A stretch of DNA of 32,000 nt from Microcystis aeruginosa NIES-843. Lineage in GTDB: Bacteria > Cyanobacteriota > Cyanobacteriia > Cyanobacteriales > Microcystaceae. The notes below the pieces were generated by a model that had not been told where the DNA came from, did not search any database, and saw only the letters and a program-made list of their open reading frames with translations. Below, one piece after another: positions 1,843 to 32,000 of the stretch. Each line of letters starts with the position of its first letter. Within the stretch, counting starts at the first letter, position 1. Position numbers and translations under genes: made by a program. The stretch lies in the NCBI RefSeq assembly GCF_000010625.1, contig NC_010296.1, forward strand, positions 390,001 through 422,000, in the 5' to 3' direction.

Positions 1843-1984
1843 CGCTTATCCCTATGTTAGAACCAAAGAGTATTTTAACTGAATGTCAGCAAAAGTCCCT
1901 CGCTTTTATGGACTTCTGCTGACTTTGTATATAGACAATTCTCGAAAACCATGTTATCATAGTTATAGTTTCTTGATAACTCTT

Positions 1985-3220
1985 ATGTACAAAGCGTACA
2001 AATTCAGACTTAAGCCTAATACCGAGCAAGAAATAGCCTTAGCAAAAAGCTTTGGCTGTTGTCGTTGGTTTTGGAATTATTCCCTGAATTTATGCCAAGA
2101 AACCTATAAAACCACAGGAAAAGGACTGACACGAAACTATATTCAGGGACTATTGCCTAGTCTCAAAAAAGAATATGAGTGGTTGACAGATGCTTATTCC
2201 CAGTGCTTACAGGTTGTCGCTTTGAACTTATCCCAAGCTTATCAAAATTTCTTTGAGAAACGGGCGAGATTACCAAGATTCAAATCTAAACATGGTAAAC
2301 AATCAATTAGCTATCCAGCTAATGTCAAATTTGAAGGTGACTACCTCAAATTACCGGGTAAAGTTGGATTAGTTTATTGTGTTCGTCATCGGGAATTTGC
2401 AGGAACAATTAAAACCGTTACTATCTCAAAAAACCCAGACGGTAAATACTACGCTTCTATTTTAGTTGATGACGGACAATCCCCCCTGCCCCCCTTGATA
2501 AGGGGGGTGCCGAAGGCGGGGGGATCTACCCTTGATAAGGGGGATGACGAAGGCGGGGGGATAGATGGAAAAGCCATAGGAATTGATTTAGGACTTAATC
2601 ATTTTGCTATTACCAGTAATGGTAGTAAATATGATAATCCTAGACATTTAGCCAAACATCAACGTAATCTAAAAAGGAAACAACAAAAGTTATCGCGTAA
2701 AAAGAAAGGCAGTAACAACCGTCAAAAAGCTAGATGTAAAGTAGCTAAAGTTCACTCTAAAATCTCAAGATGTCGTGAGGATTTTCTCCACAAGCTATCC
2801 CGTAAGATAGTTAACGAAAACCAAGTTATTGCGGTAGAAAATCTCAATGTCAAAGGCATGGTACGCAATCATAATTTAGCTAAGGCTATTAGTGATTGTA
2901 GTTGGGGAATGTTTTGTACAATGCTCAAATACAAGGCAGAATGGGAAGGAAAAACTTATATCGAAGTTGATAGGTTTTTCCCTAGTTCTAAAACTTGTCA
3001 TGTCTGTCTGAATCAAGTGGGTAGTTTATCCCTTGATGTTAGAATATGGACTTGTGTGCATTGCAAAACAATCCATGATCGTGACATAAATGCGGCAATA
3101 AATATTCGAGATGAAAGCTTACGGATATTGTCGTTAGGAACTAGCGATACTGCCTATAGAGGGGATATAAGACCAAAAGCTGGGCGTAAGTCCGTCTTGA
3201 GGCAATCCCCTGTGAAATAG
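1985..3220 (+). CDS. tnpB: TnpB (OrfB) RNA-guided endonuclease of IS200/IS605 family
   Basis: Typical N-terminus MYKAYKFRLKPNTEQ, so I start at ATG 1985 rather than the track start 1883. RuvC-I GIDLGLNH, RuvC-II VIAVENLNVKGM, zinc finger CHVC...CVHC and RuvC-III HDRDINAAINI are all present. It carries an 84-nt in-frame repeat insertion (see 2479-2562). Confidence 0.9.
   Translation: MYKAYKFRLKPNTEQEIALAKSFGCCRWFWNYSLNLCQETYKTTGKGLTRNYIQGLLPSLKKEYEWLTDAYSQCLQVVALNLSQAYQNFFEKRARLPRFKSKHGKQSISYPANVKFEGDYLKLPGKVGLVYCVRHREFAGTIKTVTISKNPDGKYYASILVDDGQSPLPPLIRGVPKAGGSTLDKGDDEGGGIDGKAIGIDLGLNHFAITSNGSKYDNPRHLAKHQRNLKRKQQKLSRKKKGSNNRQKARCKVAKVHSKISRCREDFLHKLSRKIVNENQVIAVENLNVKGMVRNHNLAKAISDCSWGMFCTMLKYKAEWEGKTYIEVDRFFPSSKTCHVCLNQVGSLSLDVRIWTCVHCKTIHDRDINAAINIRDESLRILSLGTSDTAYRGDIRPKAGRKSVLRQSPVK
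2479..2562. repeat. G/C-rich palindromic module (1.7 units) inserted in frame in tnpB
   Basis: atCCCCCCTGCCCCCCTTGATAAGGGGGGTGCCGAAGGCGGGGGGAT followed by a partial second unit. The same module occurs at 14205-14253 and, as reverse complement, at 27571-27620. It is 84 nt (28 codons), translated as QSPLPPLIRGVPKAGGSTLDKGDDEGGG. Confidence 0.8.
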
Positions 3221-3255
3221 GAAGCTCTCAAAGACCTTGAGAGTAGTTCACGATA
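3100..3255 (+). ncRNA. putative omega-RNA (reRNA) scaffold overlapping the tnpB 3' end and right end
   Basis: Placed only by analogy with characterised TnpB systems, where the guide RNA is transcribed from the tnpB 3' end through the right end. The one sequence feature I can point to is the right-end hairpin at 3225-3243. Boundaries are not determined. Confidence 0.3.
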
Positions 3256-3692: not shown

Positions 3693-4222
3693 TGACACCG
3701 CAAAACTGGTTAGGGCGCACTTTTAACCCTTTAAAAGCCAAAATTAGCAATGATCCCTATTATCGCTTTCGTTCCCTTGATGAGATCGCTATGGCGGCGC
3801 AATTGGGCATTAAAATTAATGTCAGTCAAGCGGGTGTGGATGATTGGCTGCGATTGCCGGGGATATCCATCCATCAAGCGCGAATGTTGGTGGAATTGTC
3901 GGGTATGGGGGTAGAATTGCTTTGTCTCGAAGATCTAGCGGCTGCTTTGAGTGTTCCTGTGGCTAGATTGAAAGCTTGGGAGCCGATTCTAGAATTTGCC
4001 TATTATAGTCGGGAAAGTCACCTCGCACCCCCTAAAATCAATCCTAACACCGCTTCGATCGAGCAGTTAACCACCTTACCCCTAATCAGCGATAATTTGG
4101 CAGCTGCCATTATTAAAAATAGAGAAGAACAGGGATTATTTAAGAATATTGTGGATTTTAAAGGGCGTTTATCCCTAGACGCTCAGGAAATCTCCCAATT
4201 AATGCACTTTTTCCAGTTTTAA
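3692..4222 (+). CDS. ComEA-like helix-hairpin-helix DNA-binding protein
   Basis: 176 aa with two HhH-type units (WLRLPGISIHQARMLVE; INPNTASIEQLTTLPLISDNLAAAIIKNREEQGLF). Translationally coupled to the upstream ORF. Confidence 0.65.
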   Translation: MTPQNWLGRTFNPLKAKISNDPYYRFRSLDEIAMAAQLGIKINVSQAGVDDWLRLPGISIHQARMLVELSGMGVELLCLEDLAAALSVPVARLKAWEPILEFAYYSRESHLAPPKINPNTASIEQLTTLPLISDNLAAAIIKNREEQGLFKNIVDFKGRLSLDAQEISQLMHFFQF

Positions 4223-4235
4223 TCCCAAATACTCA

Positions 4236-4406
<171 letters not shown>

Positions 4407-4423
4407 TTATTTTTATTTATTCT

Positions 4424-4546
4424 CCCCATTTCCCCACTTCCCCAATTCCCCACTTCCCCAATTCCCCACTTCCCCACTTCCCCACTTCCCCACTTCCCCA
4501 CTTCCCCATTTCCCCACTTCCCCACACTCCACTTCCCCACTTCCCA
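4424..4546. repeat. octamer tandem array CCCCACTT / CCCCAATT / CCCCATTT (G-rich on the gyrA sense strand)
   Basis: About 15 consecutive 8-nt units, each starting with CCCC. It ends 7 nt before the gyrA stop codon (4553-4555). A short related fragment occurs at 19077-19100 in inverse orientation. Confidence 0.9.
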
Positions 4547-4552
4547 GCAAAT

Positions 4553-11153: not shown

Positions 11154-11341
11154 CAATTAAACCTCTTGCATAATTAATTTTTGAGGGTTCAAAAACGTCA
11201 AAAATAGGGATTAAATCGCATAAAATCTGTAAATAGACCATTTAACTGATTATCATTCATTCTTAATTCTCCTGACTACTGACTACTGGCTACTGACTCC
11301 TAACCCTAACAACAATTTTTGATTTTTACAAGAGGTTAATT
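11154..11341. repeat. inverted-repeat-bounded intergenic segment (possible MITE) containing a CTGACTA heptamer STRR
   Basis: AATTAAACCTCTTGCA (11154-11169) against the reverse complement of 11327-11341 (AATTAACCTCTTGTA). An internal heptamer array sits at 11270-11310. Single copy in this window, so mobility is unproven. Confidence 0.3.
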
Positions 11342-13116: not shown

Positions 13117-13240
13117 CCCTTTATTTTAAAGTCAGAGGGTTGTCCTCAACAATAACACCCCTGAAAATATGGGCCATGCGATCGATAACCGCATCAATTA
13201 TGATAGAGCCTAGGCAAAGATAGCAAAAAAATTAGAGACA

Positions 13241-13630
13241 ATGTCAGATTTGAACGATGTTTTCGCAATTGTAGCCGGAGCGGTTCCGGGGGCGTTATCT
13301 CGTTATCATATTACCGAATGGACAAAAGCAAAATTCGGCTTGCGCTTTCCCTATGGAACCTTTATTATTAATTTAACTGGCTGTCTAGCTATCGGCTTTT
13401 TTTGGGCTATTTTACCCAGTTTTACCTTTTATTCCCACCAACTAGATTTAATGGTGAGAACGGGATTTTTAGGAGCTTATACCACCTTTTCTACCTATAG
13501 TTTAGATATCCTGATCCTCTGGCGCAATCAACAAAATTTTCTCAGTCTTTTTTTTGCCTTTGCTAGTATAATTTTCGGATTGATTGCCGTGAGAATCGGG
13601 GCAGCTATTGCCCAAGTTTTTCTAGGTTAA
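13241..13630 (+). CDS. crcB: fluoride channel CrcB/FluC, paralog 1
   Basis: 129 aa, four TM segments, with the signature GFLGAYTTFSTYSLD. Confidence 0.9.
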   Translation: MSDLNDVFAIVAGAVPGALSRYHITEWTKAKFGLRFPYGTFIINLTGCLAIGFFWAILPSFTFYSHQLDLMVRTGFLGAYTTFSTYSLDILILWRNQQNFLSLFFAFASIIFGLIAVRIGAAIAQVFLG

Positions 13631-13735
13631 GTAGGTAGGCGTTAAAAACTATCAGATGCCCCCCTTATCAAGGGGGGATTAAGGGGGGATCGAACCTAAA
13701 ATCCATTTTTAATTTAATTATAACCAGCTACTTAA
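13627..13735. mobile_element. TTAAGT-ended MITE, short variant (copy A)
   Basis: TTAAGTAGGTAGGCGTTAAAAACTATCAGATGCCCCCCTTATCAAGGGGGG...AACCAGCTACTTAA. Both arms match copy B (21432-21575) in inverse orientation. It starts inside the crcB stop codon. Confidence 0.75.
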
Positions 13736-13775
13736 TTCTCCAATTTATTGACTATTGAAGGGCAGGAGAGACAGC

Positions 13776-14180
13776 ATGAACTTCTTCAGGGGACGTTATA
13801 GTTTATCCGTGGCGATTGGGGCTATTTTTGGGGCTTTGAGTCGTTTTTATATTGCGAAATTAGTTGAAAGTATTTTCGGTCAAGAATGGCAATTTTTGGG
13901 GACATTTTTTGTCAATATTTCTGGCTGTTTAATTATTGCTTATATCTTTACTATAGTTAGGGAAAATATTCGCATAATTGCCCCAGAATTAGGATTGATG
14001 ATTGCCACGGGTTTTTGTGGTTCCTATACAACTTTTTCCACCTATAGTTTGGAGGTTAACAAGTTTTTAGAGCAGGGAAACATGACTTTCGGTTTAATTT
14101 ACTGGTTGGGCAGTGTTCTTGGGGGGATGATGGCGCTTAAAATTGGAGTTATTTTAGCAAGAACGGGTTTTCCTAGATGA
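13776..14180 (+). CDS. crcB: fluoride channel CrcB/FluC, paralog 2
   Basis: Signature GFCGSYTTFSTYSLE. I start at ATG 13776 (GGAG at 13765-13768 upstream) rather than TTG 13755. Confidence 0.9.
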   Translation: MNFFRGRYSLSVAIGAIFGALSRFYIAKLVESIFGQEWQFLGTFFVNISGCLIIAYIFTIVRENIRIIAPELGLMIATGFCGSYTTFSTYSLEVNKFLEQGNMTFGLIYWLGSVLGGMMALKIGVILARTGFPR

Positions 14181-14313
14181 ATTATTCAATAGATTTTGCG
14201 TCTGATCCCCCCTGCCCCCTTAATAAGGTGGGTGCCGATAGGCGGGGGGATCCCCCCTTAATCCCCCCTTGATAAGGGGGGCATCTGACAACTTTTAACA
14301 CCTAACTACTTAA
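14181..14313. mobile_element. TTAAGT-ended MITE with full palindromic module (copy C, left arm truncated)
   Basis: GATCCCCCCTGCCCCCTTAATAAGGTGGGTGCCGATAGGCGGGGGGATC, then CCCCCCTTGATAAGGGGGG...AACACCTAACTACTTAA. It begins immediately after the crcB paralog 2 stop. Confidence 0.7.
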
Positions 14314-14359
14314 GCATCTCAGCACAATTGAGACTATCTTTTTCCTTTCCTACTCAGTC

Positions 14360-14579
14360 TTAATAGGTAATGTCTCCATGGGTTTGAAACCAATCGATGG
14401 CATCGGCTAAAGCTTGTCTAATCGGCGATTGCGGTAAGCCCAGTTTCTTGCACTGCCTTCGAGGAATCTTAGTATATGGACTGTTTTGACATTTTCAGGC
14501 CATCAAGGGGTATAGAGGGCGATTTTCCCGAGATTATCGCCCCGATCAAACCCGTTCCACCCGTCACAAAAGCACCCAT
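14360..14579 (-). pseudogene. remnant of an NAD-dependent epimerase/dehydratase (N-terminus fused to C-terminal tail by internal deletion)
   Basis: The minus strand from ATG 14579 reads MGAFVTGGTGLIGAIISGKS... (Rossmann GxxGxxG start) and then hits a stop. The 3' part, in another frame, reads ...LGLPQSPIRQALADAIDWFQTHGDITY*, typical of the C-terminus of such enzymes. Roughly 250 codons are missing in between. Confidence 0.5.
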
Positions 14580-15045: not shown

Positions 15046-15232
15046 GGCTCTTCGGTAATTGTTATGCAATGGACGGGGGTTATAAGGGATGGAACCCTTA
15101 TATAGAAAGGCGTTTAGCGATTTTTGTCAATTGTTTTTGATCTAAAGCGAACTCATCAATTAAGTCTTTTGCCAGATAAGGATTTAGTCAATTTATGCCC
15201 CCCTATCGAACCATACCAAGTAACGAAGAGCC
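15046..15232 (+). mobile_element. 187-bp MITE with ISL3-like terminal inverted repeats (copy 1)
   Basis: TIRs are GGCTCTTCGGTAA... and ...TAACGAAGAGCC. The 8-bp TSD ATAATTTA lies at 15038-15045 and 15233-15240. No ORF. About 85% identical to the inverted copy at 30617-30802. Confidence 0.88.
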
Positions 15233-16350
15233 ATAATTTAATTAATCTCGGTATCTACGAACAGGTCGAGAAAGCTGTCAGCGAATCGGGATTAAAACTA
15301 GAAGAATTAATTGCCCAGGAAGAAGAACCGGGGTTAGGAAATGGTGGTTTAGGTCGTTTAGCTGCCTGTTATCTCGATTCCCTTTCTACCCTAGAAATTC
15401 CGGCTATTGGTTACGGTATTCGCTACGAATTTGGTATCTTTGATCAAGAAATTCACGACGGTTGGCAGGTGGAAATAACCGATAAGTGGTTACAGTATGG
15501 AAATCCCTGGGAAATTGCCCGACCGGAAGCGGGAGTAGAGGTAAAATTTGGCGGTTATACCGAATCCTATACCGACGAAAATGGTAATTATCGCAGTCGT
15601 TGGATTCCCGATTATGTAGTCAAAGGAATTCCCTACGATACCCCAATTCTCGGCTATCGAGTTAACACCGCTAATACCATGCGTCTATGGAAGTCAGAAG
15701 CTTGTGAATCTTTTGATTTTGGACGCTTTAATCGCGGCGATTATTATGGTGCGGTGGATAATAAAGTTCACTCGGAAAATATCAGTAAAGTTCTCTATCC
15801 TAACGATGAACCAATTCAAGGCAAAGAACTGCGTTTAGAACAGCAATATTTCTTTGTTTCCTGTTCCCTACAGGATCTGATTCGTATTCACTTACATGAG
15901 AACCCCAGTCTCGATAATTTTCATCAAAAATGGTCAGTACAATTGAATGATACTCACCCTTCCGTCGGGGTAGCCGAGTTAATGCGCTTGTTAATTGACG
16001 TGCATCATTTCGATTGGGATAAAGCTTGGTTTATTACTCAAAATACCTTCGCCTATACTAATCATACTCTTTTGCCAGAAGCTTTAGAAAAATGGCCTTT
16101 GAGTATTTTTGGTCGTCTTTTACCGCGATTAATGGAAATTATCTACGAAATTAACCATCGTTTCTTGGATAAAATTCGCATTATTTATCCCCATGATGAC
16201 GGCAAAATGTCCCGTTTGTCTATAATCGATGAAAGTGGCGAAAAATACGTCCGTATGGCTCACCTCGCCTGTGTGGGTTCCCAGGCAATTAACGGGGTGG
16301 CAGCCCTGCATACAGAATTACTGAAAAAAGATGTTCTGCGCGATTTCTAT

Positions 16351-17713
16351 TGGGACTTAAACAAATTTCAAGCCCAAACAAAGCCTAAACTGGCTTTGTA
16401 AGCGGCAAACACATCCCGATTCTCGGTCAGCCACTCAAAGAAACGGAAAGACATCGCTGTCCGAAAAGCTTCCAAGGCTTCCACAAAAGTGTTTAAAGGT
16501 CGATTCGCCCACTGCCTTTGCAATCCCCCAGTTAACTTATGCCACAGGATAAATGTATAGGCACAAAACACCAGGATAAAATGACGAAGTAAGCTTCGTT
16601 TATCCCTGACTTGATATTCCCTTAACCCTAACCATCCTTTGGCTTCTCGGTAGAATACTTCCACCCAATTTCTTTCGGTGTAAGTCCTCACTATCCACGA
16701 AGCTGTTACTGTATCTGCCTCAACTACATTGGTGATGAAATAGTCCACCTCTGTGGCTTTTTCCATTGAACTTGCATTCATGACGATCGCCAAGTTCCTT
16801 TCTCCTTCTAGTTGAGATATTTTCGCTCTGAATACCGCTACCCAAACCGTTTTTTCTTTATCTAGATTTAGGGTGATTTTCTCCCAATCCTTTTCTGATA
16901 GGCTTTTTGCTAGTTGCTCAAGCTGGATTGTTTCTTCCACACCCCCTTCTTTTTCAATAATTACTTTTCGATTTTTTGCCAATCCTCCTAAGTATTTTAG
17001 CTTTCTTTCTTCCAGGGCTTTGAGAAAATTTGTGTTGTTGCCATAACCAGCATCTATTAAGACGATTTTCGGTCGATAGCCTCTGGTTAAGCTCCGGTCA
17101 ATTAAATCTATCGCTATCTCTGGTTTCTTCTTAAATTCTTTGTCTTCTTTCCCCTCGGCTAAGGAACTAGCCGGTTGATAAATTTCAATGTCTAGGGGGA
17201 CACTTTTTTTGCCGTCGTAGAGATGGGTAGTGACGGCGACTATTCCGTTGTCTGTCTTGCCAATTTCTCCTAGGTACTGCCTGCCAACTCCGGCGGTCAG
17301 ATTGCCACTTTTTCGATGTCCTGAGTCATCGACAATCAGGGAAAATCCTCGGGGGATTTGCGTCTGGCGGCATTGGTTCATCACTTGCAACCGACATTCA
17401 TTCACCTGACGGTCTGACCAGGGAGATTCGGTCAAAAAGTGATGTAATCGGTTATAAACTACTCCGACGGCATTATTGGCAATTTGAGTGAGGTTTTTCC
17501 TCTCACTTTCCCCTAATAATCCTCCTAAATATTGTCTGAAGCCGTTTTTTTGCGCTTCGTTTTTGAAGCAATTGTCAAACCGCCGACACCATCGGTCAAA
17601 GCATGGGGGCATCGCGGCTGGGGTTGTCTCTTTCATCGCTGATCTTTCAACGTAAAGTGCTTACTCTTTAACGATTATACTCGATTTGATCTTTATTTGG
17701 CGTTTAAGTCCCA
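16351..17713 (-). mobile_element. IS701-family-like insertion sequence (1363 bp), complete
   Basis: TIRs are TGGGACTTAAAC (16351-16362) and its complement (17702-17713). The 4-bp TSD CTAT lies at 16347-16350 and 17714-17717. It holds a single transposase ORF. Confidence 0.9.
16368..17636 (-). CDS. DDE transposase (IS701-like, IS4 superfamily)
   Basis: 422 aa. The N-terminus F..W..RF...F......GFRQYLGGLLGESERKNLTQIA is typical of IS701-family transposases as I remember them. DDE candidates: VDDSGHRK, VLIDAGYGN, YTERNWVEVFYREAK. Confidence 0.85.
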   Translation of the reverse strand: MKETTPAAMPPCFDRWCRRFDNCFKNEAQKNGFRQYLGGLLGESERKNLTQIANNAVGVVYNRLHHFLTESPWSDRQVNECRLQVMNQCRQTQIPRGFSLIVDDSGHRKSGNLTAGVGRQYLGEIGKTDNGIVAVTTHLYDGKKSVPLDIEIYQPASSLAEGKEDKEFKKKPEIAIDLIDRSLTRGYRPKIVLIDAGYGNNTNFLKALEERKLKYLGGLAKNRKVIIEKEGGVEETIQLEQLAKSLSEKDWEKITLNLDKEKTVWVAVFRAKISQLEGERNLAIVMNASSMEKATEVDYFITNVVEADTVTASWIVRTYTERNWVEVFYREAKGWLGLREYQVRDKRSLLRHFILVFCAYTFILWHKLTGGLQRQWANRPLNTFVEALEAFRTAMSFRFFEWLTENRDVFAAYKASLGFVWA

Positions 17714-18855
17714 CTATGAACTCTTTCCCGAAAAGTTTAGCAACAAAACCAATGGGGTTACTCCCCGGCGCTGGATAGTTTCTAGTAATCCCCGCTTAAC
17801 TTTTGCAATTACCGAAAAAATCGGCGAAAATTGGATTAAACATCTGGAGGATTTACGCGGTTTAGAAAACTATGTGGATGATGGAGTATTTCGGGACTAT
17901 TGGCGACGAATTAAATACGATATTAAGGCAGATTTAGCCAATTATATCGATAAAAAAGTCGGCATTAAAGTTGATCCTAGTACCCTCTTTGATGTGCAGG
18001 TAAAACGCATTCATGAATATAAACGACAACACCTCAACGTTTTACACATCGTTACTCTCTATCATCGTCTCAAAAATAACCCCAATCTCGATATTACCCC
18101 CCGTACCTTTATTTTTGGTGGTAAGGCAGCCCCGGGTTATTTTATGGCGAAATTAATCATTAAATTGATTAATTCTGTGGCGGAAGTGATTGATAATGAT
18201 CCGACGATTGGAGGACGTTTAAAAGTGGTTTTCCTCCCCGATTATAATGTCACCTTCGGTCAACGGGTTTATCCAGCTGCCGACTTGTCCGAACAAATTT
18301 CCACCGCCGGGAAAGAAGCTTCGGGAACTGGTAATATGAAATTCTCTATGAATGGGGCCTTAACTATCGGTACTCTCGATGGGGCAAATATCGAAATTCG
18401 TGAAGAGGTGGGGGCGGAAAATTTCTTTCTTTTTGGCTTGACAACCGAGGAGGTTTATGCTAAGAAAGCCGCCGGTTATAATCCCCAAGAATACTATTAC
18501 CATAACGAAGAATTGCGGGCAGTATTAGACCTCATTGGTTCGGGATTTTTTAGCCGGGGTGATAGTAGTTTATTCCGCCCGCTTGTGGATAATCTTATCT
18601 ACAATGATCCCTATATGTTACTGGCCGATTATCAATCCTATATCGACTGTCAGGAAGGAGTCGGTCACGCTTATAAAGATCAAGAACATTGGAGTCGTTT
18701 AGCGATTCTTAATGTGGCCCGCATGGGAAAATTCTCTAGCGATCGCTCGATTCGGGAATACTGCGAGAAAATCTGGCGGGTACAACCGGTAAAGATTGAA
18801 TTACCCGATTATACTCAAGCTAATGCCGGTTTATCGGTAAATTAGAACCAATCTA

Positions 18856-21431: not shown

Positions 21432-21575
21432 TTAAGTAGCTGGTTATAATTAAATTAAAAATCGATTTTAGGTTCGATCCCCCCTGCCCCCCTTGATAAG
21501 GTAGGGTTGATTCATGAATCAACCCTACCCTTGATAAGGGGGGTGTCTGATAATTTTTAACGCCTACCTACTTAA
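21432..21575. mobile_element. TTAAGT-ended MITE (copy B) with a nested 28-nt perfect palindrome
   Basis: TTAAGTAGCTGGTTATAATTAAATT...GATCCCCCCTGCCCCCCTTGATAAG, then GTAGGGTTGATTCATGAATCAACCCTAC, then CCTTGATAAGGGGGGTGTCTGATAA...CCTACCTACTTAA. Confidence 0.8.
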
Positions 21576-22740: not shown

Positions 22741-22926
22741 CTACTGTCCGAATTCTATTCTAGCCTGTTCTACCATTTCCACGGTAACTCGATCGGAACC
22801 GGCATGACGAGCTAATTCTTCTATCCTTTGACGCGCTTGGGAACGAACAAAATAGGGAATATTTTTCAGTTTTGCTTTTGCTTCTGCGGTCCATTGTAGT
22901 TGATCGGAAAAATCTAGAGCTTCCAT
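22741..22926 (-). CDS. small PCP-reductase-family protein (similar to the C-terminal domain of protochlorophyllide reductase subunit B)
   Basis: 61 aa. [30 protein letters not shown] matches my recollection of that small domain family. Confidence 0.65.
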
Positions 22927-23752
22927 AGATTTAACATATAGTAGTCCGTCTATTATACCAAAAAAGATTAGCTATTTATTAAAAAGCTGATTAAATGATG
23001 AGTTTCTTGATAGCGACCTTTTCCTGCTCAATTCCGTTCTCAATCTCTTTCACCTTTCTTTTAATTTTAGGTTTCTGCTAGGTCGAAATTGACTCTTTGA
23101 TATAAATCTTGAAAAGAAATCTGCCAATCCACCGACACCAATTGTAAAACCGCATTTTCCCCCGTGACGAAATCAATTAACCATTGATCATCCTTTTGTT
23201 TATAGTAAAGTTCCACACTATAACTAGATTGTTCGATCAGAATATATTCCTGAAAAGTTGGCAAGGAACGATAGAATTTAAACTTATCCCCTCGGTCATA
23301 AGCTTGGGTAGAATTAGAGAGAACTTCGACAATAATTAAAGGATTGATCACGTTAGATTGACTATTCCCTTGATAGAGAGGTTGACCTTTAATCACCATC
23401 ACATCGGGATAGGTGTAAATACTATAATCTGACAGCCATAAACGCACCGTTTCCATGTAGGTATAATAATCTTGATTATTGATAGTCAGAGGAAATCTTC
23501 GATAGAAGTTTCCAGCAATCTGATTGTGATTAGTGGTAGCTCCTACCATTGGGATAATTTCTCCTTGACGATATTCATTTTTATCTTCGGACGTTTCCTC
23601 CAGAGCTAGATATTCTTCGGGAGTATAATATTTAGTTTCGGTAGCGCTTAACATTTTTGACTCTCCTTCCTATTCTATTTTCTAGGATACAGCATTTCCC
23701 TAAAAAGAGACAAAGTTATCCTTGAGGAAGGTTATCAATTGAGTGGCTCGGA
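22829..23752. repeat. tandem segmental duplication, unit 1 (924 bp)
   Basis: Collinear with 23784-24674. Covers the 5' third of the PCP-reductase-like gene, the intergenic region, an Uma2 gene and its upstream region. Confidence 0.9.
23067..23654 (-). CDS. Uma2-family (DUF820) putative endonuclease, copy 1
   Basis: 195 aa. YTPEEYLALEETSEDKNEYRQGEIIPM and DVMVI...PLIIVEVLSNST...D...K...Y fit the PD-(D/E)xK-like Uma2 pattern common in cyanobacteria. Confidence 0.85.
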   Translation of the reverse strand: MLSATETKYYTPEEYLALEETSEDKNEYRQGEIIPMVGATTNHNQIAGNFYRRFPLTINNQDYYTYMETVRLWLSDYSIYTYPDVMVIKGQPLYQGNSQSNVINPLIIVEVLSNSTQAYDRGDKFKFYRSLPTFQEYILIEQSSYSVELYYKQKDDQWLIDFVTGENAVLQLVSVDWQISFQDLYQRVNFDLAET

Positions 23753-23783
23753 AAAGTGTATCTTAAATATCTCAGTAATCCGC

Positions 23784-23875
23784 TGACGCGCTTAGGAACG
23801 AACAAAATAGGGAATATTTTTTAGTTTTGCTTTTGCGGTCCATTGTAGTTGATCGGAAAAATCTAGAGCGTCCGT
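23784..23875 (-). pseudogene. duplicated 5' fragment of the PCP-reductase-like gene, start codon lost
   Basis: Matches 22829-22926 but carries a 6-nt deletion, and ATG has become ACG (CAT at 22924-22926 against CGT at 23873-23875). Confidence 0.7.
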
Positions 23876-23988
23876 AGATTTAACAATAGTAGTCCGTCTA
23901 TTATACCAAAAAAGATTAGCTATTTATTGCCAAGCTAATTAAATGATGAGTTTCTTGATAGCGACTCTTTTTCACCTTTCTTTTAATT

Positions 23989-24576
23989 TTAGGTTTCTGC
24001 TAGGTCGAAATTTACTCTTTGATATAAATCTTGAAAAGAAATCTGCCAATCTACCGACACCAATTGTAAAACCGCATTTTCCCCCGTGACGAAATCAATT
24101 AACCATTGATCATCCTTTTGTTTATAGTAACGTTCCACACTATAACTAGATTGTTCGATCAGAATATATTCCTGAAAAGTTGGCAAGGAACGATAGAATT
24201 TAAACTTATCCCCTCGATCATAAGCTTGGGTAGAATTGGAGAGAATTTCGACAATAATTAAAGGATTGATCACGTTAGATTGACTATTGCCTTGATAGAG
24301 AGGTTGACCTTGAATCACCATCACATCGGGATAGGTGTAAATGCTATAATCTGATAGCCATAAACGCACCGTTTCCATATAGGTATAATAATCTTGATTA
24401 TTGATATTTAAGGGAAAATTACGGCAAAAATTTAGACAAATCTGATTGTGATTAGTGGTGGCTCCTACCATTGGGATAATTTCTCCTTGACGATATTCAT
24501 TTTTATCTTCGGATGTTTCCTCCAGAGCTAGATATTCTTCGGGAGTATAATATTTAGTTTCAGTAGCGCTTAACAT
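23989..24576 (-). CDS. Uma2-family (DUF820) putative endonuclease, copy 2
   Basis: 195 aa, with 10 substitutions relative to copy 1. Six of them cluster at residues 47-58 (IAGNFYRRFPLTIN versus ICLNFCRNFPLNIN). Confidence 0.85.
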   Translation of the reverse strand: MLSATETKYYTPEEYLALEETSEDKNEYRQGEIIPMVGATTNHNQICLNFCRNFPLNINNQDYYTYMETVRLWLSDYSIYTYPDVMVIQGQPLYQGNSQSNVINPLIIVEILSNSTQAYDRGDKFKFYRSLPTFQEYILIEQSSYSVERYYKQKDDQWLIDFVTGENAVLQLVSVDWQISFQDLYQRVNFDLAET

Positions 24577-27542: not shown

Positions 27543-27663
27543 TTAAGTGGGTAGGTGTTAAAAATTGTCAGATCCCCCCGCCTATCGGCACCCCCCTTAT
27601 CAAGGGGGGCAGGGGGGATCAAAGGCAAGATATATCGTCTATTAATTAGAACCACTTACTTAA
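27543..27663. mobile_element. TTAAGT-ended MITE with full palindromic module (copy D)
   Basis: TTAAGTGGGTAGGTGTTAAAAATTGTCAGATCCCCCCGCCTATCGGCACCCCCCTTATCAAGGGGGGCAGGGGGGATC...GAACCACTTACTTAA. The module is the near-exact reverse complement of 14205-14253 (two small differences in copy C). Confidence 0.75.
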
Positions 27664-29139: not shown

Positions 29140-29232
29140 CTAGGAAATTAATTTTGCACGACTACTTATTAACTAATTAGGGTCTGCGGCAAAAAGTTTT
29201 TCCTGGGGGCAGGGTGTAGGGTGTAGGGTGTG

Positions 29233-30106
29233 GTGCGATTCGTTGGCTAGAAACTAGACAGTAAGACGTTTAGAGGATTAGCCGCTTGGTAAATGTAGTA
29301 CCTTGATAACTTTATAACCCTACAGGTGCGGGTTAGTAATAACCTTAGTCCTGTCCTCTAGATGCCTAGAGTGACGGCATTTCCTGCTGCTTTAGACTTG
29401 GTACATCTGAGGTAGTGAGCGAGGAAAAAAAAGCGGTATCTGATAGCCTAAATCAGAAACCCGTTGAGCCAGAACCTATGGATAGCCCTGGGGCGAAGAT
29501 ACGAATTAACCATCGTCAACACCCACGAGCCAAAAGGCTGACAGGCTCGAAACAAAAGTTAACAGAGTTGGGGCTGATAGCTCATACCACTATCAGTAAG
29601 GCATTCCCGTTACTCTGTTGTGGACAGTATCATCCTAAGGGTTCAACCAATGGTTATAGGGAACGAAGTAACCCTGATTGACTCTGCCCGTTCGGGGCAG
29701 TAGGAAACCATCCGCAAGTCAATAGAGGGAGAGGATGTCCTTAAAAGCCAAGGCTTTGAGTAATATCAAAGATATGCTGACAAAGGACGGGTAACTAGGA
29801 AGTCTAAGCAACAATCAACGGTCATAAGCTAAACGGCGCTTAACCTGCATGATCCAATAGCTATAACTCTTTTGGAGTCTATATCGGTGATCCGAAGTAA
29901 AAGCCGTTTAGCTTATACGCCCTAAAACCAACAATCTTGTCTGGTGGGGATACAGCCAAGAGGGTTGAATAGACAAGGAAATAATAATTCCCATTATTAT
30001 TCTACTAATGACAGTAGCCTAGTTACTCAGGAGCCGGATACGGCGAAAGTCGTAAGTCCGGTTTTGAAGCAGGGGGTGGGAAGGCGACTTCCTGCTCTAC
30101 TGTAAC
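29233..30106 (+). ncRNA. ORF-less group II intron ribozyme (copy 1, complete)
   Basis: 5' GUGCG at 29233. Domain V at 30031-30064 (GAGCCGGAUACGGC-GAAA-GUCGUAAGUCCGGUUU: AGC triad, 9 bp, AA bulge, 5 bp, GNRA loop). Domain VI at 30070-30102 with bulged A 30099, 7 nt from the ...AC 3' end at 30106. Tetraloop receptor halves UAUGG 29477-29481 and CCUAAG 29634-29639, closed by GAACC/GGUUC. No RT ORF. Confidence 0.8.
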
Positions 30107-30616
30107 GGGTTTTACCGATTTTGAGGTGGTCAATTACCTAATTTTCAGGGAAAAAGTACCTGAATTTTCCCCCCGATCACTCCCATGCCAGGCACTTTTT
30201 GATTTCAAAAAAGCCTAAAGATATTATCCAACAAGGTTTTTAGATTTATTCAGCAAACCCTAAATATTTTACACAATTCATACCAGGTAAGCAAGAGGGC
30301 TACACCACTACTACCGAATCATTACCCGCCCTCTTTGAACAACTTCTGCTGCTCACCATAAGTGAGAGAAAATCACAAATAGGAGATGCACCCGGTTATG
30401 CCTGCTACGAATAAAGAAAAATGGTATTAGTTTTCCTTACGGGGGGGATATAGCTTAAAACGGGTGATTTCTCGGTTATCCAAGCGGTAAACTTTGATTG
30501 AGGATCAATTGGGGACGTAAGCGACGGAGTTTGCGTCTCTTTGTTATAATTCAAAGGCTAGGCTATAATAAATCTTCATAAACACCGATAATTTTAGTCA
30601 AAGATGTAAAAAAAGG

Positions 30617-30802
30617 GGTTCTTCGTTACTTGGTATGGTTCAATAGGGGGGCATAAATCGACTAAATCCTTATCTGGCAAGAGACTTAATTGATTAGTTC
30701 GCTCTAGATCGAAAACAATTGACATAAATCCCCGAATGTCTTTCTATATAAGAGTTTCATTCCTTGTAACCCTGTCCGTTGCATAAGACAAACCGAAGAA
30801 CC
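30617..30802 (-). mobile_element. 186-bp MITE with ISL3-like TIRs (copy 2, inverted relative to copy 1)
   Basis: GGTTCTTCGTTAC...CCGAAGAACC. The 8-bp TSD AAAAAAGG lies at 30609-30616 and 30803-30810. About 85% identical to the reverse complement of 15046-15232. Confidence 0.88.
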
Positions 30803-31264: not shown

Positions 31265-31613
31265 AAATCATAGTTGTTTTGTTGATTCTAATATTTGGCT
31301 TTATGCTTTTTCCACTGATAAAAGAGAAGAAAGTAAAAGAATATTGGCAAAACAATTAATTAAAGAAAAGTCCATCATTATTAGTACCCAAATAATTAAT
31401 GAGGTTTCTTGTAATTTACTTAAAAAGCATAAGCTTGATGAAAAACAACTGTTTAAATTAATTGTTTCCTTTTATAGCAAATATCAAGTTATCTCATTTA
31501 ATCTTGATATTTTTGAATCTGCATATAATCTGAGAACTCAATATCATCTATCATTTTGGGATAGTTTAGTGATTGCTTGCGCTTCATTTTCTGATGCAAA
31601 TATTGGGACTTAA
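31251..31613 (+). pseudogene. vapC: PIN-domain toxin (VapC-like), 3'-truncated by IS insertion at 31604
   Basis: PIN acidic residues occur in FVDSNIWLYA, IINEVS and FWDSLVIA. The region that normally carries the last acidic residue is missing. The final codons and the stop (..I GT*) are supplied by the IS terminal repeat TGGGACTTAAAC. Confidence 0.7.
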
Positions 31614-31793
31614 ACGATCAACAAGAGTATAATAGAGTATAATTGTTATAGAATAAGCACTTTACGTTGAAAGAGCGGCGATGAAAGAGACAACCCCAGC
31701 TGCGATGCCTCCCTGCTTTGACCGATGGTGTCGGCGGTTTGACAATTGCTTCAAAAACGAAGCGCAAAAAAACGGCTTCAGACAATATTTAGG
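31604..31793 (+). mobile_element. IS701-family-like IS, second copy, 5' 190 bp only
   Basis: It starts with the same TIR TGGGACTTAAAC. ATG at 31681 encodes MKETTPAAMPPCFDRWCRRFDNCFKNEAQKNGFRQYLG, identical to the first 38 aa of the 16368-17636 transposase. Homology stops abruptly at 31793/31794. Confidence 0.88.
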
Positions 31794-31843
31794 GTCTGCT
31801 GAAAAAGTTTTTCCTAGGGGCAGGGTGTAGGGTGTGGGGTGTG

Positions 31844-32000
31844 GTGCGATTCGTTGGCTAGAAACTAGACAGTAAGACGTTTAGAGGATTAGCCGCTTGG
31901 TAAATGTAGTACCTTGATAACTTTATAACCCTACAGGTGCGGGTTAGTAATAACCTTAGTCCTGTCCTCTAGATGCCTAGAGTGACGGCATTTCCTGCTG
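31844..32000 (+). ncRNA. ORF-less group II intron, copy 2 (5' 157 nt; runs off the window)
   Basis: 31844-32000 is identical base for base to 29233-29389, and is preceded by the same 50-52 nt leader with 4 differences. Confidence 0.8.

Follow-up and report, generated by a model that had tools for sequence, protein, structure and literature searches.

A mobile Microcystis MITE with a modular C6/G6 hairpin centre, and a probable family of related hairpins beyond the genus

The crcB locus of Microcystis aeruginosa NIES-843

In Microcystis aeruginosa NIES-843, two tandem genes of the fluoride channel family, crcB1 and crcB2, are accompanied by copies of a miniature transposable element with inverted repeats (MITE) whose centre is made of short hairpins built on C6/G6 runs (Table 1). 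The locus lies within a stretch of 32,000 nucleotides (NC_010296.1, positions 390,001 to 422,000), which we refer to as the window and to which all coordinates below apply. Genomes of the bloom-forming Microcystis are well known for their plasticity, yet hardly any catalogue of their small repeats exists. A first-pass annotation of the sequence had described the interval 13627-14313 as a G/C-rich palindromic module carried by a MITE. Modules and arms are both real, but the interval is not a single element: it consists of two inverted MITE copies, A and B, one on each side of crcB2, with arms (13627-13691 and 14249-14313) that are 92% complementary. Copies C and D make four in the window. The five module sites that had been listed all exist, with coordinates corrected by 1 nt.

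Table 1. Coordinates of the crcB genes, MITE copies, hairpin units and TnpB element in the window.
Feature	Position	Strand	Description
crcB1	13241-13630	+	Pfam PF02537 (CRCB), E = 1e-25; fluoride channel family
crcB2	13776-14180	+	Pfam PF02537, E = 1e-26; in tandem with crcB1; stop codon 14178-14180
MITE copy A	13628-13734, body 13630-13732 (AGTAGGTAGG...CAGCTACT)	+	Between crcB1 and crcB2; one hairpin unit
Copy A, duplicated TA	13628-13629 and 13733-13734	+	From filled/empty sites and family alignment
Copy A core	13659-13691	+	Hairpin CCCCCCTTATCAAGGGGGG at 13659-13677, spacer ATTAA, third run GGGGGGATC at 13683-13691
MITE copy B	14181-14312	-	Left arm end ...AACTACT-TA (14311-14312); far arm degenerate, abutting the crcB2 stop
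Closed unit, degenerate, 49 nt	14204-14252	+	GATCCCCCCTG-CCCCCTTAATAAGGTGGG-TGCCGATAGGC-GGGGGGATC; 2 substitutions and 1 deletion
Copy B second hairpin	14263-14281	+	CCCCCCTTGATAAGGGGGG, preceded by CCCCCCTTAAT
MITE copy C	21433-21574	-	TA-flanked; 144 nt counting the outer T and A; matches of 98% and 94% to copy A
Copy C split hairpin	21476-21543	.	Hairpin interrupted by 28-nt palindrome
Nested palindrome GTAGGGTTGATTCATGAATCAACCCTAC, 28 nt	21501-21528	.	Splits the copy C hairpin; 10-nt CTTGATAAGG duplicated on either side
MITE copy D	27544-27662	+	TA-flanked; right arm divergent
Closed unit, exact, 50 nt	27571-27620	-	GATCCCCCCTG-CCCCCCTTGATAAGGGGGG-TGCCGATAGGC-GGGGGGATC
Arm-less block, two tandem 37-nt units	2479-2562	+	84 nt = 28 codons; inside open reading frame 1883-3220
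TnpB-only IS200/IS605-family element, 1335 bp	1917-3251	+	Limits from similarity to loci L125-L128; tnpB open reading frame 1985-3220; Pfam domains

The shell is a mobile MITE

From the window and 35 further Microcystis loci retrieved by genome scan we collected 25 complete MITE copies, besides truncated ones; copies were found in at least 10 Microcystis genomes. The complete copies measure 97-181 nt, apart from two long ones of 395 and 554 nt, and the shell accounts for about 100 nt without the core. They start with AGTAGGTAGGCGTTAAAA and end with AATTATAACCAGCTACT, their terminal inverted repeats are imperfect and about 9-12 nt long (AGTAGGTAGG... versus ...CCAGCTACT), and 22 of the 25 have TA on both sides. 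The arms had been thought to vary independently. They are conserved instead, typically about 70-93% identical between copies (BLAST), and provide 30-45 nt of homology between dispersed copies. Solo left arms also occur in the sampled loci, with unrelated genes next to them.

Orthologous loci were obtained by scanning metagenomes with CrcB2, as exact-protein look-ups of crcB1 and crcB2 gave nothing beyond nearly identical strains and contigs that break off at the MITE. The scan yielded 13 loci of other Microcystis genotypes, to which the window adds a fourteenth. Copy A is filled in six of these (the window and five others) and empty in eight; the empty site reads ...CTAGGT-TA-ATTCTCC and the filled site ...CTAGGT-TA-[AGTAGG...CTACT]-TA-ATTCTCC. 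Copy B is absent at three loci (L208, L209 and L213). Since one orthologous site is occupied at some loci and empty at others, the shell is a genuine mobile MITE, non-autonomous, that inserts at TA with duplication of the TA. TA target duplication is the signature of transposition of the IS630/Tc1-mariner type, and a transposase of this type would be the candidate for moving the shell.

We also considered the whole MITE as a 'double foot' repetitive extragenic palindrome (REP) of the form TTAA-GTAG...CTAC-TTAA. Comparison of filled with empty sites, and variation in the outermost base, rule this out and indicate a TA duplication with AGTAG...CTACT ends rather than a double-foot REP shell.

The hairpin units have practical effects on sequence data. 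They break short-read assemblies and end metagenome contigs; one crcB1 contig (L121), for example, stops at copy A.

The hairpin core and its grammar

The core comprises one to about 13 units per shell. Each is 34-46 nt long and combines CCCCCCTTATCAAGGGGGG with another run, GGGGGGATC. In the direction from left to right arm, the unit is [GGCA]-CCCCCCTTATCAAGGGGGG-(CA, ATTAA or ACTAA)-GGGGGGATC, with a period of 34 or 37 nt. Its hairpin has an 8-bp stem, CCCCCCTT-NNN-AAGGGGGG, joined by extra C6/G6 runs that end in GATC. In a 46-nt closed version, which begins CCCCCC-GCCTATCGGC-A, an outer C6/G6 stem surrounds both the main hairpin and a small GCC-loop-GGC hairpin. The 50-mer GATCCCCCCTGCCCCCCTTGATAAGGGGGGTGCCGATAGGCGGGGGGATC singled out by the first-pass annotation is this closed version; its exact copy in the window has an expectation of 0, and shuffling the window never reproduced it. 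With as many as 3 mismatches tolerated, the 19-nt centre CCCCCCTTGATAAGGGGGG has 12 matches at 8 places (2489, 2526, 13659, 14214, 14263, 21487, 21525 and 27591) against 0.02 expected. The C6/G6 hairpin is flanked by GGCA, TG, TTAAT, CA or ATTAA and never by GTAG.

Among the complete MITE copies, 12 have one hairpin, 10 have two, two have three and one (L001, the 554-nt copy) has about 13, the units recurring at periods of 34, 37 and 46 nt; runs with a period of 11-12 nt are found at two loci (L016 and L082). A CRISPR array is ruled out, as the units stand head to tail with periods of 34-37 nt and no spacers.

A core that appears mostly inherited with the shell

In the Microcystis sample, which comprises about 277 kb and in which every locus was picked for containing the core so that its counts are no genome census, 55 of 58 exact cores lie near at least one arm. 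Both arms are present for 42 and one arm for 13, the latter being truncated copies or copies at locus edges. Of the three arm-less cores, a pair stands in tandem where a contig ends and the third is in a tnpB gene. We further note that the orientation of the loop relative to the arms is identical in all 50 loops of the 25 complete copies (43 TTATCAA, 7 TTATTAA). Fixed loop orientation and arm association fit descent from a master copy, not repeated independent entry, and the core appears to be a central domain belonging to the MITE itself, for the most part passed on with the shell and locally reshaped.

The same observations, together with the tandem periods of 34 and 37 nt in the arrays and the single arm-less context in the sample, are also what would be seen if this were one fixed MITE with an internal minisatellite, altered by slippage only, with the copy in tnpB a single accident of illegitimate recombination multiplied by the insertion sequence (IS). 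A minisatellite-containing MITE is said to be known from Porphyromonas gingivalis. We regard this explanation as unlikely: at copy B a different palindrome takes the place of the unit in other strains, which slippage cannot bring about, and the units found outside Microcystis, described below, also speak against it.

Single orthologous loci show, in addition to MITE insertion polymorphism, a second and faster layer of change within the MITE. One locus (L207) has an extra 46-nt closed unit at the copy A insertion, with GGGGGGATC on both sides, and the other five filled loci have one hairpin. Orthologous copy B in most strains carries the GTAGGGTTGATTCATGAATCAACCCTAC palindrome in its hairpin, as one or two copies or part-copies, where the window strain has the closed unit and CCCCCCTTAAT. 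These comparisons show that small modules are exchanged inside a shell that stays in place.

The exchanged palindrome has the GTAG...CTAC 'double foot' form and is REP-like; it is nested in the C6/G6 hairpin with a 10-nt duplication. This form has been described for cyanobacterial REPs (PMC6006769). Downstream of crcB2 the palindrome is seen at L207, L211, L212, L214, L216 and L217, and elsewhere at L052 and at L004:2663-2800, the last as tandem part-copies, (TAGGGTTGATTCATAG)n.

An arm-less block in a TnpB linker

The arm-less block of the window is read in frame as SPLPPLIRGVPKAGGSTLDKGDDEGGGI, directly before the GIDLGL (RuvC-I) motif of TnpB. A protein of Microcystis viridis NIES-102 matches this TnpB with 100% identity. 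For size comparison, ISMae10 is 1330 bp long and present in 49 copies (Kaneko et al., 2007; PMC2779907). TnpB relatives at 87-90% identity have an 8-residue linker (e.g. VDDGLELPSQSSDGK) in place of the block; a single unit (VDDGQSPPALLDKAGAEGGGIDGK) is present in one relative, and two in the closest ones. Inspected by eye, without an alignment, the block is much like two interior units of one MITE (L119). These observations suggest that a piece of MITE interior, or of a source common to both, was copied into the gene without the arms.

Some of the TnpB relatives (L127:1501-2784 and L128) have another in-frame insert, 48 nt long (GTTGACCCTTCGGCTTCGCTCAGGGTTAACGTCGAGCGGAGCCGAGAC, read as VDPSASLRVNVERSRD). 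It is hairpin-capable and lies directly after ATTTTA, a few codons upstream of the C6/G6 block. The TTGAT in the hairpin loop might have been the target or transposon-associated motif of an ISDra2-like IS200/IS605 element; this was rejected, since the flanks of the TnpB IS are not TTGAT (in the window and L127). These flanks show no conserved target.

Hairpin units beyond Microcystis

In a collection with one genome per species, the exact 19-mer occurs in at least 120 genome stretches against about 4 expected by our estimate (596 Gb, uniform composition, both strands). The hosts among the matches listed include many cyanobacterial genera, Nitrospirae, Poribacteria, Planctomycetes, Chloroflexi, Patescibacteria and others. 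Among these matches, too, 147 of 154 instances have a third run within a few nucleotides, either at least 5 C just upstream or at least 5 G just downstream, for which we estimate a chance rate of a few per cent. Outer runs in cyanobacteria usually finish with GATC. Elsewhere in the same loci, hairpins with different loops nearly always have the form C5-8-TT-NNN-AA-G5-8. Similarly, the pattern CCCCCCTTNNNAAGGGGGG has 92 instances in IMG/VR contigs, 72 of them with the third run, and one viral contig contains a full closed unit.

Full closed units without the Microcystis arms are found in Elainellaceae, in a metagenome-assembled genome (MAG) of Microcystaceae and in another cyanobacterial MAG; a Prochloron unit lacks the leading C-run. 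The side hairpin of these units varies among genera (GCC/GGC, GGC/GCC and GTCC/GGAC). Taken together, these comparisons suggest that the hairpin unit probably belongs to a family reaching well beyond Microcystis. A fixed MITE does not account for complete units with the side hairpin and without arms in Elainellaceae, the Microcystaceae MAG and the viral contig, for the Prochloron unit without its leading C-run, or for the hairpin and third run across phyla, in frame in unrelated genes.

The first-pass annotation had proposed that the core moves or recombines apart from the shell, an idea that would fail if the core never occurred without the same arms. Cores without these arms do occur, in the TnpB block and in other cyanobacterial genera. 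The proposal is borne out as far as exchange goes, by the arm-less TnpB copy, by the replacement of interiors at orthologous insertions with constant arms and by the arm-less units of other genera; transposition of the core in its own right found no support, and the close tie of cores to arms and the uniform loop direction in Microcystis count against free movement.

Several non-cyanobacterial lineages have multiple matches with conserved flanks of their own, some of them in high-G+C planctomycete genes. Hairpins in Nitrospirae MAGs (L002, L024, L049 and L084) lie within the flanks GAGCGGATTTATTTTGCCGATA...GAGGCAAAATACCTCGGAG, and those in Poribacteria MAGs (L048, L057, L077 and L104) within CAGGACTTACGCATT...TTAAAAGTCGTTATTT. 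The shell around the hairpin thus seems to differ from phylum to phylum. A bolder extension of these findings is that the C6-TT-NNN-AA-G6 hairpin with its flanking runs (ends ATCCCCCC...GGGGGGAT) would be a mobile element in its own right, pan-bacterial, self-nesting and 20-50 nt long, that colonises MITEs, IS, phage genomes and protein surface loops across phyla; it would then be the bacterial equivalent, at a much larger scale, of small dispersed repeats, Rickettsia palindromic elements and yeast mitochondrial GC clusters. We entertain this tentatively and think it somewhat unlikely.

It could also be that the hairpins outside Microcystis share no common descent, and that C-run/G-run hairpins arise and grow convergently by template switching and slippage. 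Both loop orientations occur outside Microcystis at similar frequency, which fits such an origin, as do the perfect nested palindromes and the 8-12-nt tandem periods, which inverted and direct local duplication would produce, and the local expansion and decay of units in oxygenase and Microcoleus orthologues (see below). On the other hand, the TT...AA beside the runs and the AT(C) ends are kept far beyond what hairpin growth needs, and the full unit with its GCC-loop-GGC side hairpin is common to several genera and a viral contig. We find convergence very doubtful.

Candidate enzymes and single-stranded genomes

A further explanation invokes a REP-like unit moved by an HUH/Y1 enzyme, either a RAYT or the TnpA of an IS200/IS605 element, that would recognise the hairpin and use the C6/G6 run as target or cleavage sequence. 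This is consistent with a stable hairpin beside a conserved flanking run, with the GTAG...CTAC palindrome nested in these MITEs, with the presence of the motif once per genome in Microviridae-like contigs with single-stranded DNA (ssDNA) genomes, and with the in-frame REP insertions and 'double foot' GTAG...CTAC REPs of RAYT subclass 2.4 (PMC6006769). Yet a GT[AG]G foot is missing from the C6/G6 hairpin, the IS of the window encodes TnpB only and has no conserved target in its flanks, and the element is often intragenic, unlike classical REPs. A scan for RAYT-like open reading frames (ORFs) with the regular expression HUH...Y(x)2-3[NQ][PQ] found none in about 870 kb flanking the loci, which is a weak test. 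Near the non-Microcystis copies no candidate mobilising enzyme came to light; only kinases, nonribosomal peptide synthetases (NRPS) and phage/Microviridae genes recur. We consider movement by such an enzyme quite unlikely.

The Microviridae-like contigs number 13 (IMG/VR loci L130, L133, L136-L138, L150, L158, L163, L164, L173-L175 and L190). They are about 4.5 kb long with capsid and replication-initiator ORFs, and each has one CCCCCCTT-NNN-AAGGGGGG, mostly followed by a G-run. Their hairpin could be a functional signal of an ssDNA genome rather than a selfish insert.

Units read in frame as protein loops

Five of the six reading frames of the hairpin unit are open and encode Pro/Gly-rich loops. 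Among the matches listed, 53 of 154 instances lie in stop-free frames of at least 120 residues. We translated 31 instances, each within an ORF of at least 323 residues, and their readings PLDKGG, PPLIRG, PPLSRG and PPYQGG represent four of the five open frames. The host genes encode NRPS adenylation domains, an ABC ATPase, a Ser/Thr kinase and an apocarotenoid oxygenase. In the kinase about 28 extra residues lie between DFG and APE, by comparison with the PknB structure, and in the oxygenase the element adds 7 residues to a loop (compared with structure 2BIW). In-frame insertion into loops of conserved proteins, the behaviour of Rickettsia palindromic elements (RPEs), is thus seen in TnpB, the oxygenase and the kinase.

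Orthologous genes differ in the units that they carry. In Nostocales oxygenases the same loop is either short (NPKQKG, in many orthologues) or contains one to three units whose loops differ among lineages (PLDKGG, PLNKGG, PLTKGG, PLEKGG, PPYKGG). The DNA of the Fischerella PCC 9605 oxygenase has the full nested form, GATCCCCCC-TCAAAT-CCCCCCTTAATAAGGGGGG-AAAAAC-GGAGG, which is decaying in relatives of this strain and absent in Chlorogloeopsis. An orthologous Microcoleus gene (L013, L051 and L059) has gained a hairpin-containing unit of about 66 nt in tandem, with a difference of one unit between species. This array occupies the N-terminal region of the gene and is read as PPLTPPYQGGGQEG repeats. 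The surface loop of the oxygenase is a hot spot for hairpin units (L020:6131, L220-L222, proteins P0121-P0240).

The unit appears to be part of a widespread class of tiny palindromic DNA that adds Pro/Gly-rich loops to enzymes (NRPS, kinases, oxygenases and TnpB). Its consequences for annotation are spurious 'hypothetical proteins' of the PPLxKGG type and length variation in conserved genes.

A stable predicted fold

The module had been thought capable of forming very stable hairpins. Fold prediction agrees: as ssDNA the 50-mer adopts a predicted three-way junction at -20.9 kcal/mol (z = -5.0 against shuffles), and a three-way fold is predicted for the degenerate closed unit as well. Across 12 closed units of several genera, 95.8% of cells pair, compared with 56-73% for slid controls.

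Such stability, the pairing across the 12 units and the intergenic position of the window copies beside gene ends would suit a structured RNA or DNA element under selection, such as a terminator, an mRNA stabiliser, a protein-binding site or a G-quadruplex switch. Against this, Rfam matches are absent from the whole window at the gathering score and from 13600-14330 even at E <= 1, and a terminator scan of 13200-14500 found no T-run site at the units, the hairpins being followed by a G-run or by arm sequence. Copies also stand in both orientations relative to neighbouring genes; these three findings argue against a functional RNA gene or terminator. Presence and unit number vary among close strains at one locus, covariation is not above that of shuffles, and insertion into coding loops fits tolerated junk better. 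Selection for such a function is, in our view, highly improbable.

A probable composite of two selfish repeats

We favour a reading in which two selfish repeats probably form a composite: a TA-duplicating MITE shell, and a central hairpin stack that rarely escapes from it and has relatives in a wider family. Units would be gained and lost when strands slip or pair unequally at the C6/G6 direct repeats and the 9-nt GGGGGGATC. Gene conversion among dispersed copies may also change the stack, with the conserved arms as homology. Within Microcystis the core would spread mainly by riding in the MITE, and only rarely would a piece of the stack be copied into arm-less DNA, the TnpB linker being the one case. 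How bare units enter new sites is our guess: template switching at stalled hairpins, or an ssDNA (HUH-type) enzyme acting in trans. Members of the wider family may persist inside genes because five of six frames are open and encode Pro/Gly-rich loops.

Several points weigh against this composite reading, or parts of it, in addition to the selective make-up of the Microcystis sample. The assignment of the shell to the IS630 type draws on the TA duplication, because no full-length parent IS with matching ends and a DDE transposase was found in the sampled loci, a small sample. With these data the interior exchange fits both gene conversion and insertion or excision of modules. The TnpB linker is too variable to set the boundaries of the insertion, and a transfer between MITE and TnpB may have run in either direction. 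Covariation analysis gave one compensatory pair, which 127 of 500 shuffles equal, and makes no case for or against selection on the fold. Finally, mis-binning may affect some of the MAG contigs assigned outside the cyanobacteria; one of them, L068, has a 70% DNA match to the tRNA-synthetase gene of the window.

If dedicated mobilisation were true, the unit would be among the smallest mobile elements, and the spread of repeats below 50 nt would become directly testable.

Relation to known repeat families

The first-pass annotation did not recognise the core as a named family. This agrees with the lack of an Rfam match and with our literature search, which found, among the papers available to us, none with the core sequence or its encoded peptides. 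The closest parallels by description are the small dispersed repeats (SDRs). Elhai and colleagues reportedly described, in 2008, SDR1-8 as nested in MITEs, in tandem repeats and in one another, with SDR5 inside HIP1 (GCG^ATCGC). Both groups are very small hairpin-forming repeats that nest in MITEs, tandem repeats and themselves and are linked in their insertion to GATC-containing sites, and for neither is the mechanism of mobilisation established. By description, the only basis of this comparison, the units here differ in being 34-50 nt long, in being built on C6/G6 runs and in occurring in Microcystis, other cyanobacteria, other phyla and viral contigs. SDRs are 21-27 nt long and reported only in Nostocaceae (PMC5861425, PMC4390886).

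The REP/REPIN-RAYT systems (subclass 2.4; PMC6006769, PMC3733652) resemble the family in their short, G/C-rich, high-copy palindromes, their clusters and dimers and their in-frame occurrence, and a true GTAG...CTAC palindrome sits in the same MITEs. Unlike them, the C6/G6 unit has no GT[AG]G (or CGTC) tag, and in Microcystis it rides in a TA-duplicating MITE.

Rickettsia palindromic elements are 100-150 bp long, confined to Rickettsia and inserted in frame in genes, where they are tolerated as surface loops; the GC clusters of yeast mitochondria are mobile G/C-rich islands in AT-rich DNA. Both share with the present family the character of palindromic selfish DNA and in-frame insertion in protein genes, tolerated as extra loops. 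Neither is built on C6-TT-NNN-AA-G6 and neither is MITE-borne, and membership in the RPEs is excluded by size and sequence.

The comparison with published Microcystis MITEs that had been called for shows that the families whose descriptions were available to us differ in size, ends and target duplication. The MaeMITE catalogue of NIES-843 lists elements of 150-435 bp (Kaneko et al., 2007; PMC2779907), and an ISL3-derived Microcystis MITE of 187 nt has 8-bp duplications and GGCTCTTCG ends (PMC11448079). These are likewise multi-copy, non-coding, inverted-repeat elements with insertion polymorphism. Going by the published descriptions, the family here is set apart by its length of 97-181 nt (rarely up to 554), its TA duplication and its AGTAGGTAGG ends. 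The precedent in Porphyromonas gingivalis mentioned above is BrickBuilt, which Klein and colleagues are said to have described in 2015 as a MITE with a minisatellite. It is alike in that the centre of the MITE is a variable-number tandem repeat, and unlike in organism and sequence; its repeat is no nested hairpin, and occurrence outside the MITE is unreported. Within our findings, the Microcystis part is a MITE of an ordinary kind whose modular centre is unusual; what merits further work is the hairpin family found in frame across phyla.

Other features of the window

The window holds further repeats. Between 4212 and 4550 an array of the heptamer AGGAGTC (4212-4419) adjoins an array of the octamer TCCCCACT (4407-4550). 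Both look like cyanobacterial short tandemly repeated repetitive (STRR) sequences, and a run of the inverse heptamer lies at 11268-11304. Three repeat pairs are unrelated to the C6/G6 finding: an inverted pair at 15077-15232 and 30617-30772 (156 nt, 89%), an inverted pair at 17524-17717 and 31600-31793 (194 nt, 90%) and a direct pair at 29191-29389 and 31802-32000 (199 nt, 99%). The first pair also matches other Microcystis loci, which indicates that more MITE-like families are present in the window.

The ORF for glycogen phosphorylase (15124-16401) matches no more than positions 2-368 of the Pfam profile, which has 713 positions, and runs into a DDE_5 transposase gene on the opposite strand (16368-17636); the gene has the look of one interrupted by an IS. 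At 22823-24576, two tandem genes of the Uma2 family (putative restriction endonuclease; 23067-23654 and 23989-24576) stem from a duplication of about 920 nt, with segments that are 93-98% identical. The catalytic domain of a group II intron is identified by Rfam at 30029-30106 (55 bits), and the 160 nt that follow it (window 30029-30266 in all) are a repeat with 85-91% identity to several other Microcystis loci.

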